In this document: positions 3,987 through 17,517 of the stretch, in pieces
How the letters are laid out: each line of letters opens with the position of its first letter
How positions within the stretch are numbered: position 1 is the first letter of the stretch
Notes under the pieces: model-generated
Told to the model about the DNA's origin: nothing
What the model saw: the letters and a program-made list of their open reading frames with translations, nothing else
Databases searched by the model: none
Made by a program: the position numbers and the translations under genes
Source: Candidatus Saccharimonas sp.
GTDB lineage: Bacteria; Patescibacteriota; Saccharimonadia; Saccharimonadales; Saccharimonadaceae
Assembly (NCBI GenBank): GCA_015256915.3
Contig: CP076101.2
Span: 420,001 to 452,000 of the forward strand
Direction: 5' to 3'
Length of the DNA stretch: 32,000 nucleotides

Positions 3987-4022
3987 AACTAATATTTTAT
4001 CACAATAAATCTTTTTTGAAAA

Positions 4023-5015
4023 CTATAAACTTGGTGAATTTAAATTTGAATTTATACTTTTATAGAGTTCATTTTGCTGGACTGAAACTTCATTAAATTC
4101 ATTAATTTTCGAATTGTAACTATTCACTAAATTATTAATTTTCAACCTTGAATTTTCAAGATTTCGAATTCTTTGCAATAATTTTGCACGGTCAGCGTTA
4201 AATTCCGCCCGAGTTTCATACTTTCCAGTTTTAGCATCATTATTAAACTCGGCAATATCTTCCTCCAATTCTCTAGAATCTTCAGAGTATTTTTTCGTAG
4301 ATTGTTCGATCTCTGACTTCATTTTTTCAAGCTCTGCGGTCAAAGCTTCTGCTCGATTCTTTAAATCTTTAAAGTTTTTATTATAACTTTGATAGATCTG
4401 AGCGATTTCTCTACGATTTTTAAAAAACTTAGCATAATGTTCTTCAAGCTCTTTCGAGATTTCCAGCTGCTCAGTACCAATTAAGGAATGAAGCTCATTG
4501 ATTCTCTCACCAGGCTCAGTCCGATCATAAGATTGCATCAACTTTTCGAAATCTGCATCTTTAACCCTCTCATACTCAGCATTAAGCAGTTTGCCAATCT
4601 TATCTCGTTCGCTCAAGCTCATTCGCTCCCAAATTGCATGCAAAAGCTCGTGAGCCGCCGTTACCTCTTTTATACCGTCAAGTTTCAAGTTTTTTACATC
4701 ATAAAGATGAATTTTACCCAACTTATAACACCCCAAAATTGCTGAATCTTCTTCACGATTTTTGCAATTTTCATTAAATTTCTCTGAATCTTCAACCTTT
4801 GGGTTAGAAGCGTAAAAAATTGTCTTAGCATTAGTGGTTGGTTTAATTTTATTTTCTATTTTTAAAATTTCAGAATCTGGCTTATAATTTTGTGCTGCAA
4901 AATAATCACGGATCCCGTGTTGATTAAATAACACAAAAAATGCTGCACTACCAAGAATAGCAATAACTACTAAAGTTCGAGCTACTCTCCAAAAAGTTTT
5001 ATGTTGAAAAATCAT
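4023..5015 (-). CDS. Hypothetical membrane-anchored protein with an HExxH motif and a long C-terminal coiled coil (putative zinc metallopeptidase)
   Basis: It has an N-terminal TM helix (LVVIAILGSAAFFVLF) and the motif VTAAHELLHAIWERM. The C-terminal ~150 aa are heptad-like and E/K/N-rich. The function is not recognised. Confidence 0.6.
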   Translation of the reverse strand: MIFQHKTFWRVARTLVVIAILGSAAFFVLFNQHGIRDYFAAQNYKPDSEILKIENKIKPTTNAKTIFYASNPKVEDSEKFNENCKNREEDSAILGCYKLGKIHLYDVKNLKLDGIKEVTAAHELLHAIWERMSLSERDKIGKLLNAEYERVKDADFEKLMQSYDRTEPGERINELHSLIGTEQLEISKELEEHYAKFFKNRREIAQIYQSYNKNFKDLKNRAEALTAELEKMKSEIEQSTKKYSEDSRELEEDIAEFNNDAKTGKYETRAEFNADRAKLLQRIRNLENSRLKINNLVNSYNSKINEFNEVSVQQNELYKSINSNLNSPSL

Positions 5016-5053: not shown

Positions 5054-5716
5054 AGTATTTTTCGAAGAAGGAGAATTTTTGGTTTATTTTTTATAGCCAT
5101 AATCGCAATTGCATCAATTTTAGCAAATCCAGATTTTTGGCAAACTTCAAAACTAGATTCAAATAAAAAATCAGATTCTCAAACTTCTTTAACTGATTTA
5201 AACTCACTTGAAGTTAAAGGTCGTTCACCAAAAACTGGTTATTCTCGCGAGCAATTTGGTAAAGGCTGGACAAAAGATTCTAGCGGTTGCGATACACGAA
5301 ACCGTATTTTAAAACGTGATTTAATAAATGCTGTAGAAAATTCGGATTGCAAAATTTTAAGCGGAACCCTAAAAGACCCTTATACTGGCAAAGAAATTAA
5401 TTTTTCACGTAAGCAAAATGCTTCTGCTGTTCAAATAGACCACGTCGTTGCACTTTCTGATGCTTGGCAAAAGGGCGCTCAACAATTTTCGAAAGAAAAA
5501 CGAATCGAATTTGCGAATGATCCGCTAAATCTTTTAGCTTCAGATGGCCCAGCCAATCAGCAAAAAGGTGATTCTGACGCCGGCTCTTGGCTTCCTTCAA
5601 ATAAAGATTTTCGCTGTGAATATATTTCTCGCCAAATTTCAATCAAGAAAAAATACTCAATTTGGGTAACTGCCTCTGAAAAATCAGCAATGCAAAATAT
5701 TTTGCAAAATTGCTAA
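5039..5716 (+). CDS. Signal-anchored HNH/DUF1524-type nuclease (GmrSD C-terminal nuclease fold), probably extracytoplasmic
   Basis: It has an N-terminal anchor IFGLFFIAIIAIASILA. The motifs are GYSREQFGKGW...CDTRNRILKRDL...VQIDHVVALSDAW...NDPLNLLASDGPANQQKGDSDAGSWLP, as in secreted DUF1524 nucleases of Actinobacteria. Confidence 0.75.
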   Translation: MRKKQSIFRRRRIFGLFFIAIIAIASILANPDFWQTSKLDSNKKSDSQTSLTDLNSLEVKGRSPKTGYSREQFGKGWTKDSSGCDTRNRILKRDLINAVENSDCKILSGTLKDPYTGKEINFSRKQNASAVQIDHVVALSDAWQKGAQQFSKEKRIEFANDPLNLLASDGPANQQKGDSDAGSWLPSNKDFRCEYISRQISIKKKYSIWVTASEKSAMQNILQNC

Positions 5717-6702
5717 TCAGTAATTTCAAACCAATCAAACTTTTTAAAATTCTCGCCCTCAACTATTGCCGCAGCAAGCCGCATCTCGCTATTTTTTATA
5801 TTATTTTTGTAAGCAAAAAATTCTGCCGCAAATCGCATTTGATCCACTTTATTCTTTGAAATTGCAGCCTCTCCACCACCAAAATCATTATTTTTTCGAA
5901 ATTTAACCTCTGTAAAATAGTAATTTTCACCATATTTCGAAATAATATCAATTTCACAAAATTTTGTTCGCCAATTTCGCGCCAGAATCTCGTGTTTCTC
6001 TTGCTTTAGAAATTCCGCTACAAAATCCTCAGCTTTATCACCAAGCTCTTTTGTAGTAATTTTTTCAGCTTTCTTCACCTTAAAGGTATTCATGTTCTTA
6101 TTTTGAGAATTTTCTAAGAATTCCGCTATTGGCTTAAAACTTTTGCGATGTATTTTGCTCACTCCAAATTCAGACAAAGCTGCCCTATGTTTTGGTGTTC
6201 CATATCCTGCGTGATTTTCAAAGCAAAAAGGTGCAAGCTCAGGTTTTTTCGAAAGTTCTGCCATAAAATTATCCCTCGCAACTTTCGCACAAATTGCAGC
6301 TGCAGAAACGCTTAAAATTAGTAAATCAGCCTTTTTAAGAGTGGAGGCATATTTTTCAAGTGGTGTGCCAGCCAAGAAATTTACAGTGCCATCAATTATA
6401 ATTTCATTAAATTTGATATTTTGTTTTTTACATTTTATCTGCACTTCCTTAACAGCTCGCCTTGTTGCAAGTTTTAAAGCAGCGCTCAAACCAATTTCAT
6501 CAAGCTCATCGTTCGAAACCCAACCCAAGCCAATAATTGCAGAACTTTTAGAAATCTCTGCCGATAGCTTCTCTCTCTGCTTTTTTGAAAGAGCTTTTGA
6601 ATCTGTTAGTCCTTTAATTTTAGCACCATTCAAAACGCAAGCACCCACAACCAAAGGCCCAGCCCACGCTCCACGACCAACTTCATCAATCCCGAGAACC
6701 AT
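5713..6702 (-). CDS. rnhB: RNase HII fused to a YraN (UPF0102) endonuclease-like domain
   Basis: The N-terminal part MVLGIDEVGRGAWAGPLVVGA...DSK is RNase HII. The C-terminal ~115 aa, LGDKAEDFVAEFLKQEKHEILARNWRTKFCEIDIISKYG..YFTEVKFRKN..FGGGEAAIS..K, match the YraN signature. The start is set at ATG 6702, preceded by TAGGAAATAAA; the ORF track start at 6720 is an alternative. Confidence 0.85.
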   Translation of the reverse strand: MVLGIDEVGRGAWAGPLVVGACVLNGAKIKGLTDSKALSKKQREKLSAEISKSSAIIGLGWVSNDELDEIGLSAALKLATRRAVKEVQIKCKKQNIKFNEIIIDGTVNFLAGTPLEKYASTLKKADLLILSVSAAAICAKVARDNFMAELSKKPELAPFCFENHAGYGTPKHRAALSEFGVSKIHRKSFKPIAEFLENSQNKNMNTFKVKKAEKITTKELGDKAEDFVAEFLKQEKHEILARNWRTKFCEIDIISKYGENYYFTEVKFRKNNDFGGGEAAISKNKVDQMRFAAEFFAYKNNIKNSEMRLAAAIVEGENFKKFDWFEITD

Positions 6703-6822
6703 TTTATTTCCTAAATACATGAAAATTACAATAAGAATCAGTTTTTAACTATTTTAACGAATATCTATGTAAACATACTAACAAAAAAATATGCCTTAGT
6801 CAATAAACTTAATTTTTAGGAG

Positions 6823-8476: not shown

Positions 8477-8986
8477 TTAATTGGTTGCTTTTCGAAATTC
8501 CAAATCTTCGTTTGTAAGACCACCAGCAATCGCGTTGATTGGCGAAAGAAGTGTATCCACAATTTGACCAATAAGTTGATCTTTGCTTGGAAGTTCTGAA
8601 AGTGTCGTAACAGTTGCAGTATCCATTACATCACCATTGTCAGCAAACGCACCAACAAGTTTCATTTCTGGGTGATTTTTTGCAAATTTACCCAAAACTT
8701 GCGCAGCAGCAATCTCATCTTCGCTTGAAATTGCGTAAACGAGTTGACCTTTTAGTGCAGAAGTGTCAGATTCTTTCAAAGCTTCAACTTCTTGCATCGC
8801 AACTCGCACAAGGCGGTTTTTAACAACTTTGATTTGAACACCAGCCTCGCGAGCTTCTTTTCGAAGTTCTTGAAGGTCGGCAACTGTCAAACCTTTATAT
8901 TCAGCAAAAGCTGTCATTTTTGCGTCTTTAAGAGCGGCGCTTAATTCAGCAACCAATTGGTTCTTTTTATCGCGTGATAATGCCAT
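8477..8986 (-). CDS. rplJ: 50S ribosomal protein L10
   Basis: The sequence is MALSRDKKNQLVAELSAALKDAKMTAFAEYKGLTVADLQELRKEAREAGVQIKVVKNRL. It lies directly upstream of rplL. The RBS is AAAAGGAG. Confidence 0.97.
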   Translation of the reverse strand: MALSRDKKNQLVAELSAALKDAKMTAFAEYKGLTVADLQELRKEAREAGVQIKVVKNRLVRVAMQEVEALKESDTSALKGQLVYAISSEDEIAAAQVLGKFAKNHPEMKLVGAFADNGDVMDTATVTTLSELPSKDQLIGQIVDTLLSPINAIAGGLTNEDLEFRKATN

Positions 8987-9141
8987 AAAAACTCCTTTTT
9001 TGGTTAATATTCTTCGACCTAATTGTTAAGATTCTGGCGTTTTGAAAGCCTCCCTTCAAAACTCGTTGGCAGATAGAAAAAGTATTCCTCGGTAGCAGAT
9101 TAAGCCTAGCTAACGCGAGGCGGCTACTGTCTCTGGCAACT
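8987..9141 (-). promoter_or_regulatory. Structured 5' leader of rplJ-rplL, a possible L10-leader autoregulatory element
   Basis: This is a ~155-nt untranslated leader. It contains a long helix GUUGcCAGA / UCUGcCAAC, an inner GUAGC/GCUAC pairing, and a hairpin GUUUUGAAgggaggcUUUCAAAAC. The position matches the known L10(L12)4 feedback leader. The assignment to that family is not verified. Confidence 0.4.
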
Positions 9142-9147
9142 TGTTTT

Positions 9148-9176
9148 ATTTTAACACAAAAAAACTAAAATTTCAA
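9148..9176 (-). promoter_or_regulatory. Predicted promoter of rplJL: TTGAAA-17-TGtTAAAAT
   Basis: The minus strand reads TTGAAAttttagtttttttgtgtTAAAAT. Confidence 0.5.
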
Positions 9177-9220: not shown

Positions 9221-9249
9221 TTGACAAGCTAGAATATTTTTGCTATAAT
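9221..9249 (+). promoter_or_regulatory. Full-consensus sigma70 promoter: TTGACA-17-TGcTATAAT with an A/T-rich upstream region
   Basis: The sequence is ttgacaAGCTAGAATATTTTTGCtataat. No start codon follows within 50 nt. Confidence 0.65.
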
Positions 9250-9255
9250 TTAACA

Positions 9256-9504
9256 GTTATCACTTATTGAAAGTTTATTTTAGATACGATGGATATAAAG
9301 AGGACGAAGAAGTATTCATCGAGGATATTGAAAGATAACGCAATAAATGATAACTAAAAAACTTCCGAAGAAAGGAGATAGTTCTTTTATCAAGTAGTTT
9401 TATAAACTATGGCGGTAGTTTATAAAATGAATCACATCTTCGCTAGTGAGAAGTTATTTATTCATTACGGTTACGGTTACGCTTATTCTTGCGTAGCCTT
9501 TTTT
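9256..9504 (+). ncRNA. Candidate ~250-nt structured RNA of unknown class, bounded by a consensus promoter and an intrinsic terminator
   Basis: A 14-bp closing helix pairs 9256-9269 GTTATCACTTATTG with 9341-9354 CAATAAATGATAAC, with one mismatch. Internal pairings include CGATG/CATCG and the hairpin TAGTTT-tat-AAACTA (9395-9409). There is no convincing ORF or RBS. I could not match it to SRP, 6S, tmRNA, RNase P, T-box or any common riboswitch consensus. Confidence 0.4.
9475..9504 (+). terminator. Intrinsic terminator ending the candidate RNA
   Basis: GGTTACGC-ttattctt-GCGTAGCC is followed by TTTTTT. Confidence 0.65.
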
Positions 9505-9649
9505 ACTGCATAAAATTAAGCCGCTCCAAACCCAGAACTAGAATAAACTCCAACAGAATATTAGCTGCACTACTACCGTTTTTAGCCACCACTGAGTTTT
9601 TTCATAGTAAAATAAAATGTTTAAAATCTAAAAATTCTAAGAGCAACTC

Positions 9650-9678
9650 TCGCCAACTTTTCTAAAAAATGTTATAAT
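9650..9678 (+). promoter_or_regulatory. Predicted promoter of the LtaS-like gene: TCGCCA-17-TGtTATAAT, with the ATG 9 nt after the -10
   Basis: The sequence is aaaaaTGtTATAATtaaattattATG. There is no Shine-Dalgarno. Confidence 0.5.
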
Positions 9679-9687
9679 TAAATTATT

Positions 9688-11637
9688 ATGAAAAATTTAA
9701 AAAAGCTTGATTTCAAAAAATACTTTAAAGAAATTTTTAAAAAATATTTATCTGAAAAATCACAAAAAAACGTTATAAAATACGCAAAAATTAGCAAAAA
9801 AATCATTCAAAGCAAAGCTACTTTTTTGATATTTTCAACGATTTGTATTTATTTATTGGGAGCCTTTCTTGCAAAATATATTTTAAATCTCCAATTTGGT
9901 GGCTGGGAAAAGGCTAACGAATTCCTTTCGAAAAATCCAAAAATTGCCGAGTATAGCCAGATTGTAACAATTTTAATCAGTTTTTTGTTTGTCGGAATCT
10001 TTCGAAACTGGCGAATTTCAATGGGCATTTTGTTTTCACTCGCCACAATTGTGATGTATATCAATACTGAAAAAATGGCCTCGCGCAATACGCCGTTTTT
10101 GCCTGAAGATTTGGCGATGTCTGGTGAAGCTGGCGGACTAGCCTCAATGATTAATTTAGAACGATTTTTAAATATGCTTTTTACGATTGCGATAATTATA
10201 ATCATAACCATTATTGTAAATAAAATTTCAAAAAAAATCTGGCATTTTAAATTTTCAAAAAAGCAAAAAATAGCAATCTTTATTCCACAAATTGCTCTAA
10301 TTCTAATTTGTGCGCACTTTTTAAATTTACACACTTTAGAAATTCGAAATCTTAGTGGAAAAGGCACTTTCATTAAAGTTGAGAATCTCGAGACTTCTAT
10401 TGACTTCACCGATCAAGCTTATAACTACCGAACCAATGGCTTTATTTTAGCAACAATCTCAAACCTTCAAACTAAAACTCAAAAACAACCAGAAGGTTAT
10501 TCTAAAGAAGCCGTACAAAAAATTGTCCAAAAATATAAAAAAATTGCTGAAGAAAATAATAAAAATCGCAAAAAATTAAGTGATGAAAAAGTAAATGTCG
10601 TTTATGTGATGAGCGAGAGTTTTATCGACCCTAAGCTTGGTAAGCATCTTTATGATTACGGAAATAAAGAGCCAATTCCATACACACAAGAAATTAAAAA
10701 ATCACAAAGTTCTGGTTGGGCTGCTTCAAGCGAATATGGCGGCGGAACAGCTAATGTTGAATTCGAAGCTTTAACAGGATTAAGTAATTTCTTTCTAAAT
10801 TCAATCCCCTATACTTCAATTGTGTCTACAAATAAAGACACACCTTCAATCGTGAAGAATTTTAATGAAAACGGCTACAAAACAATCGCAATGCATCCGT
10901 ATAATCGTAATATGTATCGCCGCGAGGTTGTTTATCCAAACCTTGGTTTTCAAGAATATAAGAGCGCTGATAATTTCAAAAACAATTCGAAAATTGATAA
11001 CTCGAAATATATTTCAGATGAATCCGCCTTTAATGAAGTTTTAGCTGAACTAAAAAATAGCCAAAAGCCTGAATTTATCCACCTCGTAACAATGCAGAAC
11101 CATATGCCCTATGACAACAATTTTTATTCGAAACATAATTTTAGCGTTGAAGCGAAAAATGGCGCAAATCCAGAAAATGCAAAAACTATTCAGGCTTATC
11201 TTGAAGGAATTTCACATTCAGATAAAGCAATGAAGAATTTTCTTTCTGAAATTAAAAAATTAAATGAAAAAACCATTGTGGTTTTCTGGGGTGATCACTG
11301 GCCAGGAATTTATGGCGAAATGTTCGAAAAAGAATTAAATAAAAACGATATTCGCCGCACACCACTTTTTGTTTATTCGAATTTTAAAAAAGAAAAACAA
11401 GATTTAGGAACCTCAAGCTTGATTTATAATCAAATCTTAGCTTTAAATTCTTTTGATTCAAAACTTTCAGCATTTCAATACTTACTAAGTGATTTGCGAG
11501 AAAAATATCCCGCCTTAACTAAACAATTTGTAAAAACAGACGAAAAAAGTGACATTTTAAAAGATTTCGAAATGATTGAATACGACATTTTAAGCGGAAA
11601 TAAATACAGCCTTGGTGATTTTTATAAAATCAAATAA
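9688..11637 (+). CDS. LTA synthase / phosphoglycerol-transferase family membrane sulfatase (LtaS/MdoB-like)
   Basis: It has a multi-TM N-terminal region followed by an extracytoplasmic sulfatase domain. The motifs are VVYVMSESF, GGGTANVEFEALTG, MHPYNRNMYRR, MQNHMPY and FWGDHWP. Confidence 0.85.
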   Translation: MKNLKKLDFKKYFKEIFKKYLSEKSQKNVIKYAKISKKIIQSKATFLIFSTICIYLLGAFLAKYILNLQFGGWEKANEFLSKNPKIAEYSQIVTILISFLFVGIFRNWRISMGILFSLATIVMYINTEKMASRNTPFLPEDLAMSGEAGGLASMINLERFLNMLFTIAIIIIITIIVNKISKKIWHFKFSKKQKIAIFIPQIALILICAHFLNLHTLEIRNLSGKGTFIKVENLETSIDFTDQAYNYRTNGFILATISNLQTKTQKQPEGYSKEAVQKIVQKYKKIAEENNKNRKKLSDEKVNVVYVMSESFIDPKLGKHLYDYGNKEPIPYTQEIKKSQSSGWAASSEYGGGTANVEFEALTGLSNFFLNSIPYTSIVSTNKDTPSIVKNFNENGYKTIAMHPYNRNMYRREVVYPNLGFQEYKSADNFKNNSKIDNSKYISDESAFNEVLAELKNSQKPEFIHLVTMQNHMPYDNNFYSKHNFSVEAKNGANPENAKTIQAYLEGISHSDKAMKNFLSEIKKLNEKTIVVFWGDHWPGIYGEMFEKELNKNDIRRTPLFVYSNFKKEKQDLGTSSLIYNQILALNSFDSKLSAFQYLLSDLREKYPALTKQFVKTDEKSDILKDFEMIEYDILSGNKYSLGDFYKIK

Positions 11638-16019: not shown

Positions 16020-17339
16020 CTAAACCTCATCTTCAGCAACTTCTGTGAAGCTACTAAAAAAGTCATCTTTGGTTTTTTTCCATTTTTCGTCCTGACGAAC
16101 CAACCATTTTTCATCATCTTTATTTAAGAGTAGGATTTTTGTAGCCTCCTCTAGGTAAATTTTACCTTGAGAGCCTTTAAGTAGAACTAGAGTACCTCGT
16201 TCCATAATCTTATGAACAAAAGTTCCTGCATCAATTGCATTTTTTGCTTCATAAACCTGACAGCCCCGCAATCTTGCAGCTGGAGCAAGAAACTTATTTG
16301 CATGTTCACCAACAGTAACCACCCAGGAAAGAGAAACCCCATCAAGCATTTCACCTATTTTTTGATGTTCAAAAGCAGAATCCTCACCAAGCTCATTCAT
16401 ACTTCCAATAACTGCAATTTTCGAAGGTGCAGAAAGAGAATAAAGTGTTTGGATCGCAGCTTCTAATGCGGCCGGACTCGAGTTATAAGTATCATCAATT
16501 AAAACAGAGTCTTTAACGCCTCGCATAAAATTCATTCTACCAGGAACTGGTTTCAAACTTGCCAACCCACCTACAATTTCTTGCGGGCTCAAGCCAAGCT
16601 TAATAGAGACCGCTACTGCACCAGCAATTGGCCTAAGAGAATGTTCGCCAAAAACTTTTACTCGAACATTAATTTCACCATATTCTGGAGTTTGAATTTT
16701 ACCGCTAAAGCCATCAAGTAAAGAGAAATTATTAGCTATAAAATTATAGTTAGCTCCACCAACCGAGCTATAAGTTGCAATATTCGAATTTCGAATATAT
16801 TTAAAAAAATCTGGCGAGATATCATCTTGATTTAAAATTGCCATTTCAGCAAAATTCCCAGCTTCAAGTTCTTCTTGCGCAACAGCATCGATACTTCCAA
16901 AAAACTCCATATGTTCAGGAGTAACAGATGTAATTACTGCTATATTTGGAGCAAGATATTTGCTAAACCGTTCGATATCACCGGGGTGGTCAGTTCCAAG
17001 TTCTTGAATGATAATTTGCGGCTCTTGATCACTAGGTGATTTAATCCGCTTTCTTGCAGCCTTAAAAACTCTATGCCATTCCCAAAAATTACGAGGATTT
17101 CCAGGAAAATTTATTCCTAAAATCGCTAAAGGAGCACTCAAATGTGTATTGTGGTTTCCTTCGTGTAATCGTACACGATATTTTTGACTCAAGATAGTTG
17201 CAATTGCAAGTTTTGTACTAGTTTTTCCAACAGAACCAGCAACCGTAATTAATTTAATATCTGGATGAGTTTCGAAATATTTTCGAACATATTTTTCAAG
17301 TTTTCTTTGAATTCCTTTTTTAAACATAATCTTATTCAT
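16020..17339 (-). CDS. murF: Mur ligase family protein, most like UDP-MurNAc-tripeptide--D-Ala-D-Ala ligase (MurF)
   Basis: The motifs are ITVAGSVGKTSTK (P-loop), ELGTDHPGDIERFSKYLAPNIAVITSVTPEHMEFFGS, and a C-terminal domain containing DDTYNSSP. Confidence 0.75.
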   Translation of the reverse strand: MNKIMFKKGIQRKLEKYVRKYFETHPDIKLITVAGSVGKTSTKLAIATILSQKYRVRLHEGNHNTHLSAPLAILGINFPGNPRNFWEWHRVFKAARKRIKSPSDQEPQIIIQELGTDHPGDIERFSKYLAPNIAVITSVTPEHMEFFGSIDAVAQEELEAGNFAEMAILNQDDISPDFFKYIRNSNIATYSSVGGANYNFIANNFSLLDGFSGKIQTPEYGEINVRVKVFGEHSLRPIAGAVAVSIKLGLSPQEIVGGLASLKPVPGRMNFMRGVKDSVLIDDTYNSSPAALEAAIQTLYSLSAPSKIAVIGSMNELGEDSAFEHQKIGEMLDGVSLSWVVTVGEHANKFLAPAARLRGCQVYEAKNAIDAGTFVHKIMERGTLVLLKGSQGKIYLEEATKILLLNKDDEKWLVRQDEKWKKTKDDFFSSFTEVAEDEV

Positions 17340-17482
17340 TATAATATAAAATCACCACTTTTTCAAGCAGTGATTTATTTGTTGATGTGTGCCCACCCTG
17401 GGCGGTTTTTGTTATTTATTTTTATTTATAAGTGTTATTTAGGGGAGAAAACAAACATCGCCCTTGATAACACATCAACTGT
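17340..17482 (-). ncRNA. Candidate structured 5' leader or small RNA upstream of murF
   Basis: On the minus strand the outer helix pairs GUUGAUGUGU (17479-17470) with ACACAUCAAC (17390-17381). The inner helix pairs GGGCGAUGUUUGUU (17463-17450) with AACAAAAACCGCCC (17413-17400). The inner helix competes with a local hairpin GCCCAgggUGGGC. A second hairpin AAAUCAC-14 nt-GUGAUUU (17376-17349), followed by UAUAUUAU, lies just before the murF ATG. Confidence 0.4.
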
Positions 17483-17488
17483 AATAGA

Positions 17489-17517
17489 ATTATAGCAAAA
17501 CGTTTAAGCTTTGTCAA
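17489..17517 (-). promoter_or_regulatory. Full-consensus sigma70 promoter: TTGACA-17-TGcTATAAT
   Basis: The minus strand reads ttgacaAAGCTTAAACGTTTTGCtataat. The -35 begins 4 nt after the stop codon of the upstream gene. It is nearly identical to the promoter at 9221-9249. Confidence 0.65.

Follow-up and report, generated by a model that had tools for sequence, protein, structure and literature searches.

The stretch of DNA analysed here (the window, 32,000 nucleotides (nt) in length) comes from the genome of a human-associated member of the Saccharibacteria (TM7, group G6). Its subject is a predicted RNA gene at 9221-9504, flanked by the operon for ribosomal protein L10 on one side and a cell-envelope gene on the other. 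As judged from the sequence and its relatives, we hold with fair confidence that the locus, found in group-G6 Saccharibacteria, is an independent gene whose product is a structured small non-coding RNA of 178-250 nt, probably acting in trans. The computed support consists of the promoter, the terminator, the conservation of the structure, the lack of a conserved open reading frame (ORF) and the independence from the downstream LtaS-like gene. The parts of the unit and the spacer that follows it are as follows.

9221-9249, plus strand: sigma-70-type promoter, with -35 TTGACA at 9221-9226, a 17-nt spacer, TG at 9241-9242 and -10 TATAAT at 9244-9249
9255-9504, plus strand: predicted transcript, about 250 nt here and 178-250 nt in relatives, with the start placed from the -10 box
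9255-9355, plus strand: P1, the 5' hairpin domain, with an outer 15-bp stem (9255-9269/9341-9355) and a variable, dispensable interior (9270-9340)
9356-9397, plus strand: A-rich linker (9356-9361), P2 (CUUCC 9362-9366 with GGAG 9374-9377) and U-rich linker (9378-9397)
9397-9428, plus strand: P3, a hairpin of 12-14 bp rich in A and U, whose 6-nt loop, UGGCGG (9410-9415), is GC-rich
9429-9474, plus strand: GAAUCAC linker, P4 (CUUC 9438-9441 with GAAG 9450-9453) and a U/A-rich linker that holds a tandem copy of TACGGT
9475-9504, plus strand: intrinsic terminator found by terminator scan, GGUUACGC, 8-nt loop, GCGUAGCC, then U6, with the 8-bp stem at 9475-9498
9505-9592, no strand assigned: spacer 3' of the terminator, 88 nt, variable and outside the RNA, with 3 or 4 non-alignable allele types and indels

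BLAST and nhmmer searches found the region in 17 rplJ loci, always 5' of rplJ on the opposite strand and always with the LtaS-like gene next to it. An exact-pattern scan of metagenome contigs, using the promoter and start of the LtaS-like gene, added 15 further loci. Together, the 17 genome loci and 15 metagenome loci gave 29 distinct versions of the region (the variants), so homologous intergenic regions do exist in relatives; their absence would have counted against the RNA that a preliminary description of this DNA had proposed.

The promoter at 9221-9249 matched the consensus at 12 of 12 positions in an in silico promoter scan. This exact pattern, TTGACA-17-TGcTATAAT here, is found at two places in the window, where shuffles predict 0.03, which bears out the earlier claim of a full-consensus promoter that is one of the two best present. 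The second exact copy, at 17489-17517, is on the minus strand, a point that had not been stated. The -35 element is TTGACA in 28 of the 29 variants. A promoter is recognisable in 28 variants; of these, 25 have TATAAT as the -10, 26 a 17-nt spacer and 10 the TG. At the other end, the terminator scan recovered the 8-bp stem and the T6 tract of the terminator described before, which stops 184 nt upstream of the LtaS-like gene.

Fold and coding potential of the RNA

Thermodynamic folding, suggested as a check in the preliminary description, gave a minimum free energy (MFE) of -61.6 kcal/mol for the predicted transcript (249 nt as folded), compared with -44.1 +/- 4.6 for shuffled sequences (z = -3.85, with 0 of 200 shuffles as low). 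The same holds for 29/29 variants, with z ranging from -2.7 to -8.3 (median -4.9). A common layout is found in every variant: P1 from +1, an A-rich linker, a small P2, a strong P3, a small P4 and the terminator.

The 5' arm of P1 starts exactly at the predicted +1 (9255), and the outer stem was recovered as an inverted repeat of 15 nt with 93% complementarity, in agreement with the 5'-end pairing claimed before. The P1 interior occurs in long, short and near-deleted (mini) forms and is deleted in L003 and L012, while the stem is kept with its arms 12-71 nt apart. The two GATAAC copies (9334-9339 and 9349-9354) are present as reported, but the first copy exists in the long P1 form only, and the alternative pairings proposed for them are limited to that form and are not conserved. 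P2 is formed by CUUCC with GGAG or GGAAG, or by UCCG-AAAA-CGGA, depending on the variant; RNAalifold favours an alternative GGAG/UUCU pairing in this region. The AAAGGAG box noted earlier was found at 9371-9377, and the U-rich linker at 9378-9397 is partially deleted in 5 variants. The core of P3 is a perfect 12-bp inverted repeat (9398-9409 with 9416-9427). The TAGTTT-tat-AAACTA hairpin previously described is only a part of this larger hairpin, and the direct repeat GTAGTTT(T)ATAAA is merely its two arms. A hairpin is predicted at the P4 position in most variants, with varying sequence and size; type 2 alleles have a C-rich/G-rich two-tier hairpin there.

Secondary structure is conserved through compensatory change, in P1 by one-sided changes only. 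In the covariance-model alignment, 98.4% of the cells are paired overall, compared with 40-49% after sliding of the partners. Double-sided changes are seen in twelve pairs, and none of 500 shuffles attains the covariation score of the alignment. Most of this comes from P3, with double-sided changes in 11 of 13 pairs and pairing in 98% of the cells. For the terminator stem, 100% of the cells are paired over 28 variants, with one pair changed on both sides (C-G to U-A) and two on one side; 37 cells are G·U and none A·C, and one U·G is invariant. The P1 outer stem is 94% paired in 22 variants, versus 28-57% with a slid partner, and all its changes are one-sided (A-U to G·U), none double-sided. 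Support for P1 comes instead from the survival of the pairing through deletions that move the arms from 71 to 12 nt apart, and from its beginning exactly at the predicted start. The idea of P1 as a DNA operator was rejected because of this variation in arm spacing (12-71 nt). Counted on the plus strand, G·U and A·C cells number 31 and 8 in P1, 38 and 2 in P2, 24 and 5 in P3 and 37 and 0 in the terminator, for a total of 130 to 15. Read from the opposite strand, or in a DNA palindrome, the G·U cells would count as mismatches; this strand test is decisive for RNA over DNA, and the fold is thus kept in the RNA.

We judge the region to be non-coding. ATG codons on the plus strand at 9290, 9347 and 9409 open ORFs of 22, 16 and 34 residues, so that the statement that no start codon follows the promoter was only loosely right; none of these ORFs has a Shine-Dalgarno (SD) box or a conserved frame. 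The 22-residue ORF is found in the long P1 form only. The 16-residue ORF starts within the P1 3' arm, its frame shifts with the length of an A-run and its ATG is absent in several variants. An ORF of 26-38 residues across the terminator is in different frames in different variants. On the minus strand, a conserved ATG yields 7 codons. The adjacent minus-strand frame is open for 21-53 codons in most variants, but an in-frame start requires an A-run of 7 A's; the C-terminal halves encoded by different alleles are unrelated, and the frame of the spacer ORFs is not kept. Six peptides searched against Pfam and NCBIfam matched no family. In short, no ORF keeps its frame or start across the variants, and the conserved small protein that would have spoken against the RNA was not found.

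Distribution and sequence turnover

A search with the rplJ-encoded L10 protein returned 43 loci, nearly all from metagenome-assembled genomes that carry the label Saccharibacteria or Candidatus Saccharimonas; among the matches, at 91-92% identity, was Candidatus Nanogingivalis (group G6). In eight of these loci (L007, L017, L020-L022, L024-L026) L10 is 96-99% identical, the gene order is different and unrelated DNA is found at the position of the RNA. In L021 and L026 the LtaS-like gene is inverted, with no such RNA upstream. A covariance model of the 3' half found exactly one copy per locus and no second copy in the window. The RNA gene is found in a cluster of related species within the group-G6 Saccharibacteria, with at least 29 related genomes retaining it. 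More distant homologues were considered in L027 and L029, but these weak covariance-model matches fall in an apparent small protein-coding gene. A phage or mobile origin was rejected, with no match in 50,697 phage records; scanning viral contigs for the terminator pattern gave one match, which lies within a coding region and was judged to be due to chance.

Two copies or lineages deserve separate mention. In L045 (BNJT01000680.1, about 4000-4480), the promoter of the RNA copy is damaged (TTAACA; CTGTAAT) and the 3' arm of its P1 is broken. This is either a decaying gene or the result of assembly errors; the BNJ* contigs also vary in homopolymer lengths. In the RNA-less lineage L021, two direct repeats of about 33 nt (..CTCCGGACTATTTCGGGGATAATATATC), each with a small hairpin, are found upstream of the LtaS-like gene at 1500-1620.

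Divergence is unevenly distributed along the unit. It is 0.11 in the promoter, 0.10-0.12 in the P1 arms and 0.14 in the terminator, compared with 0.22 in the P1 interior, 0.24 in the linker and P2, 0.37 in P3, 0.35 in the P4 region and 0.236 in the spacer after the terminator, which is apparently free of constraint. For the RNA body the value is 0.23, whereas the four-fold degenerate sites of the LtaS-like gene have a mean of 0.19 and a maximum of 0.30. The body therefore changes at about the neutral rate or slightly faster, with many indels, and the promoter, the 5' stem at +1, the P1-P4 hairpin layout and the terminator are retained amid this drift. As the loci represent different species, near-neutral divergence is to be expected. 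For the same reason the idea of hypervariability relative to the flanks was dropped, the values being between-species and not strain-level divergence.

Divergence of the RNA is not correlated with the four-fold divergence of the LtaS-like gene (r = -0.01). The variants can be classed by module: P1 is long, short or mini, P2 is CUUCC or CCUCC, P3 is type 1 or 2, and there are several spacer types. Several pairs of modules show all four combinations of types among the variants. This pattern and the missing correlation, the only two signs of recombination, indicate that the locus is mosaic. The P3 loops show a further kind of change. Among relatives (L001-L056) they are found in flipped orientations, namely UUGGGG/CCCCAA, CGGCAA/UUGCCG, CGGCCA/UGGCCG and UGGCAG/CUGCCA, and these four exact reverse-complement pairs represent minute inversions of the segment that perfect inverted repeats enclose. 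Hairpin loops of non-coding chloroplast spacers are known to undergo such inversions. As there, both orientations occur between perfect inverted repeats among close relatives; unlike there, the hairpin lies within a bacterial RNA gene and its stem otherwise behaves as an RNA helix.

Function and competing explanations

All 4227 Rfam models were scanned at the gathering score and at a permissive E-value, using the window copy and the divergent variants L009 and L016. At the gathering score, the whole window yielded two tRNAs only, with the RNA below threshold for every family, in line with the earlier failure to match it to common families; L009 gave nothing of note. The best match of the window copy was RF00022 GcvB (23.1 bits, gathering score 42, at 9338-9505). 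GcvB is a proteobacterial family, and the likeness is that of a small RNA with a terminal terminator: the well-aligned part is the terminator, most of the conserved G/U-rich region of GcvB falls in gaps and the alignment passes over a central block of the model. In 6S RNA, the 5' and 3' ends pair into a long rod with a central bubble. This identity was rejected, since the 5' end of the RNA pairs locally (nt 87-101), the 3' half forms separate hairpins instead of one long rod with a central bubble, and RF00013 was not matched. RoxS/RsaE and SR1 are trans-encoded regulatory RNAs of Gram-positive bacteria. Like them, and with no homology implied, the predicted RNA has a free-standing intergenic gene with its own sigma-70-type promoter and intrinsic terminator, a length of about 100-250 nt, hairpins with A/U-rich linkers, anti-SD-like C/U-rich motifs and a lineage-restricted distribution. 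It differs from them in showing no sequence or model similarity, in having its C/U motif mostly paired and in its near-neutral turnover. The predicted RNA is a new family in a candidate-phyla-radiation lineage, and in kind an ordinary free-standing bacterial small RNA gene.

On the reading that we favour, transcription would start from a near-consensus sigma-70 promoter back to back with that of rplJ and would end at the RNA's own intrinsic terminator, before the LtaS-like gene. Selection would act on the RNA fold and on the sequences of P1 and the terminator, with the remaining sequence drifting about neutrally and being reshuffled by recombination. The product would be a stable regulatory RNA working in trans, by pairing with mRNAs or by binding a protein. 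Hairpins at both ends are the usual route to a long-lived transcript, which makes trans action the most likely mode. We infer from the sequence that the RNA is expressed, stable and active in trans; of the two options first put forward, that of a highly expressed trans-acting RNA is plausible.

Several observations weigh against this reading. The transcript of about 250 nt is a prediction and not an observation. The alignment of P3 and the terminator was fitted to the covariance model, which favours structure, although the margin is large. As P1 shows one-sided changes only, its covariation test is not significant and is uninformative. The flips show that the P3 loop is free to vary in sequence and is not a conserved recognition element. 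They also show that hairpin processes are active here at the DNA level, by which some of the compensatory changes could arise. The absence of the RNA from relatives with 96-99% identical L10 makes it dispensable at the level of the genus. No candidate seed or target emerged: no single-stranded conserved stretch of at least 7 nt is present in all variants except the A-run, and when the window was searched for patterns that could pair with the conserved P1 arms, the RNA was the sole match. The duplexes predicted with 30 translation starts were long and riddled with loops, and none stood out. The anti-SD-like CUUCC/CCUCC motif forms the 5' arm of P2; being mostly paired (mean unpaired probability 0.29), it was abandoned as a possible seed.

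The main rival, which we consider unlikely, holds that only the act of transcription matters, or nothing at all: a portable strong promoter would have landed at an inversion breakpoint and would transcribe leftover DNA up to an old terminator. Divergent transcription might then help the rplJ promoter via supercoiling, or the terminator might shield the LtaS-like promoter, and the hairpins would be DNA palindromes whose symmetry is maintained by template switching. Consistent with this, the promoter hardly differs from the second perfect one of the window, the unit is located where close relatives differ in gene order, the body changes at the neutral rate or above it and has many indels, the P3 loop inversions prove DNA-level hairpin processes at this place, and the seed and target searches (30 starts, window and variants) came out empty. 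Such a palindrome would, however, lack the plus-strand bias of 130 G·U to 15 A·C and the invariant terminator U·G. The pairing of P1 across arm distances of 12-71 nt fits RNA and not an operator or palindrome, P1 begins exactly at the predicted +1, and 29/29 variants fold far better than shuffles. It is this strand-specific constraint at the RNA level that argues against transcription alone. A different possibility, to which we give only a slim chance, is that the RNA is under diversifying selection rather than plain drift, as a specificity determinant with several alleles maintained in the population. This would fit the old, non-alignable alleles of P3, P4 and the spacer, the modules reshuffled among species, an RNA divergence uncorrelated with that of the neighbouring gene, and the loop flips. 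If true, the determinant might target phage or the interaction between the epibiont and its host bacterium, with loop inversion as a simple switch.

The remaining alternatives concern the neighbouring genes and a hidden peptide. A cis-acting leader or attenuator of the LtaS-like gene, in which a signal would set the balance between stopping at 9504 and reading through, would suit the position of the RNA 5' of the envelope gene in the same orientation, with a terminator between promoter and gene, and the second structured RNA of the window is similarly placed 5' of a Mur-ligase gene. We nevertheless find it improbable. The LtaS-like gene has its own extended -10 promoter 9 nt from the ATG, conserved at a divergence of 0.03 and laid out in the same way in the RNA-less L021, and the 88-nt spacer after the terminator is unconstrained; from this it follows that the RNA is not its leader. 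In addition, the ATG has no SD box in front of it, and translation of a read-through transcript would therefore presumably be poor, and the P1 interior, the sole candidate ligand pocket, is deleted in L003 and L012. By eye, no conserved antiterminator pairing was seen, and Rfam gave no match to a riboswitch or leader family. The decoupled regulatory leader that had been offered as the other option is thus disfavoured. Marginally less credible again is that the locus encodes a small protein, either in a plus-strand ORF (16 residues from 9347, or 26-38 residues from 9409/9427) or as a minus-strand peptide. In the minus-strand version, a hydrophobic peptide in 9503-9603 would turn the locus into a type I toxin-antitoxin pair whose transcripts converge. 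A similarly strong RNA promoter and convergent layout are found in type I systems of Bacillus, for example bsrG/SR4. Small ORFs do recur in many variants, and the conserved ATG would reach the minus-strand frame of 21-53 codons with 7 A's or by ribosome slippage. Yet the frames differ, the starts lie inside stems without SD boxes, and the A-run varies by 1 nt and not by 3. Variants with 6 A's have no in-frame minus-strand start, there is no common transmembrane segment, and by eye the minus strand seems poor in A, a composition in which long open frames would come easily. The promoter scan found no minus-strand promoter in the spacer or the conserved block, and neither Pfam nor NCBIfam gave a match. 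A type I toxin-antitoxin locus was rejected on the missing in-frame start in most variants, the unrelated C-termini and the missing minus-strand promoter. Least probable of all, and very much so in our estimation, is that the RNA is a diverged copy of the L10 leader, a decoy titrating the L10-(L7/L12) complex and so relieving the autoregulation of rplJL. The gene does lie directly beside the real rplJ leader, and the 3' half of L016 matches RF00557 L10_leader below threshold (33.4 bits, E = 6.6e-4). This score is under the 44 required, the main stem of the model is deleted and the match is largely over the terminator and A/U-rich flanks. Moreover, the window copy does not match L10_leader at E up to 10, local alignment of 11 variants to the genus's own leader was no better than for shuffles (z up to 1.3), and the CCGAG element is found in few variants only. 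Unlike an L10 leader, the RNA is transcribed away from rplJ.

Should the favoured reading of a trans-acting small RNA be right, the gene would be of use in several ways. Saccharibacteria and other candidate-phyla-radiation bacteria have tiny genomes, and to our knowledge few regulators have been described in them; among the papers searched, none dealt with small RNAs of the Saccharibacteria themselves or described regulatory RNAs of other candidate-phyla-radiation bacteria. A conserved RNA beside the L10 operon, presumably strongly expressed, offers a concrete handle, and oral and gut metatranscriptomes can be searched for it directly. Its species-level variants, more than 25 in number, are suited to comparative target prediction, and adding the RNA to family libraries could improve the annotation of Saccharibacteria genomes. 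The locus also illustrates how an RNA gene may keep its promoter, terminator and hairpins despite about neutral sequence turnover. The gain would be modest if this were one more lineage-specific small RNA without a known target.

Neighbouring genes and the second promoter unit

The RNA gene is flanked by the following features, which agree with the setting first described, a divergent rplJL promoter on one side and an LtaS-like gene with its own promoter (a promoter-like site at 9650-9678) on the other.

8477-8986, minus strand: rplJ, encoding L10; rplJ-rplL is transcribed leftwards
9154-9067, minus strand: L10-leader-like 5' untranslated region of rplJ, 42.6 bits against a gathering score of 44
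9176-9148, minus strand: rplJ promoter from the promoter scan, the divergent neighbour, outside the RNA unit
9593-9690, plus strand: conserved block and LtaS-like promoter, TCGCCA at 9650-9655, a 17-nt spacer and TGtTATAAT ending at 9678, with the ATG at 9688
9688-11637, plus strand: LtaS-like gene of the sulfatase family, 649 residues, downstream of the RNA

The rplJ promoter and leader region (9067-9176, minus strand) diverges by 0.01-0.03 between species, the leader by 0.01, and rplJ carries a clear AAAGGAG box. The promoter block of the LtaS-like gene has a between-species divergence of 0.03; its promoter ends 9 nt 5' of the ATG and there is no SD box, a layout that suggests a leaderless mRNA. 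In L021 the same arrangement of TGnTATAAT, 9 nt and ATG is found with different upstream DNA. Promoters 9-10 nt before an ATG without an SD box were seen for the LtaS-like gene (9650-9690; 1735-1765 in L021) and for the Mur-ligase gene (17322-17366, with a second ATG at about 17327). This suggests that leaderless mRNAs are used for envelope genes in this organism, unlike for rplJ. Within the conserved block, the A/T-rich 57 nt at 9593-9649 have a divergence of 0.09 although the preceding spacer is not conserved. They hold a small AGAG..CTCT palindrome and a conserved minus-strand ATGAAAAAAC, and may be an UP element or a regulator site.

The second perfect promoter is predicted to drive another orphan structured RNA, of about 100-140 nt, in a unit at 17340-17517 directly 5' of the Mur-ligase gene (16020-17339).

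17517-17489, minus strand: second perfect promoter, TTGACAAAGCTTAAACGTTTTGCTATAAT
17479-17470 with 17392-17383, minus strand: closing stem of 10 bp
within 17340-17517, minus strand: GC hairpin, GCCCAGGGUGGGC
17376-17349, minus strand: final hairpin, whose loop holds the -35 of the next promoter

This unit has an MFE z of -5.36 and no Rfam match. It resembles the RNA at 9255-9504 in its near-identical promoter, its AGUU start, a 5' end that closes a stem of about 90 nt, and a terminal hairpin just 5' of the leaderless-type promoter of an envelope gene. Paralogy was rejected, as the similarity ends a few bases past the promoter and, when only the transcripts are compared, 60 of 300 shuffles reach a score as high. 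The two also differ in conservation: the second unit is 84-99% identical across six metagenome loci, far better conserved than the RNA at 9255-9504, which drifts.

Finally, the ORF at 5713-6720 (minus strand) combines RNase HII and UPF0102 (YraN-like) domains in one protein according to Pfam, a fusion of usually separate genes.

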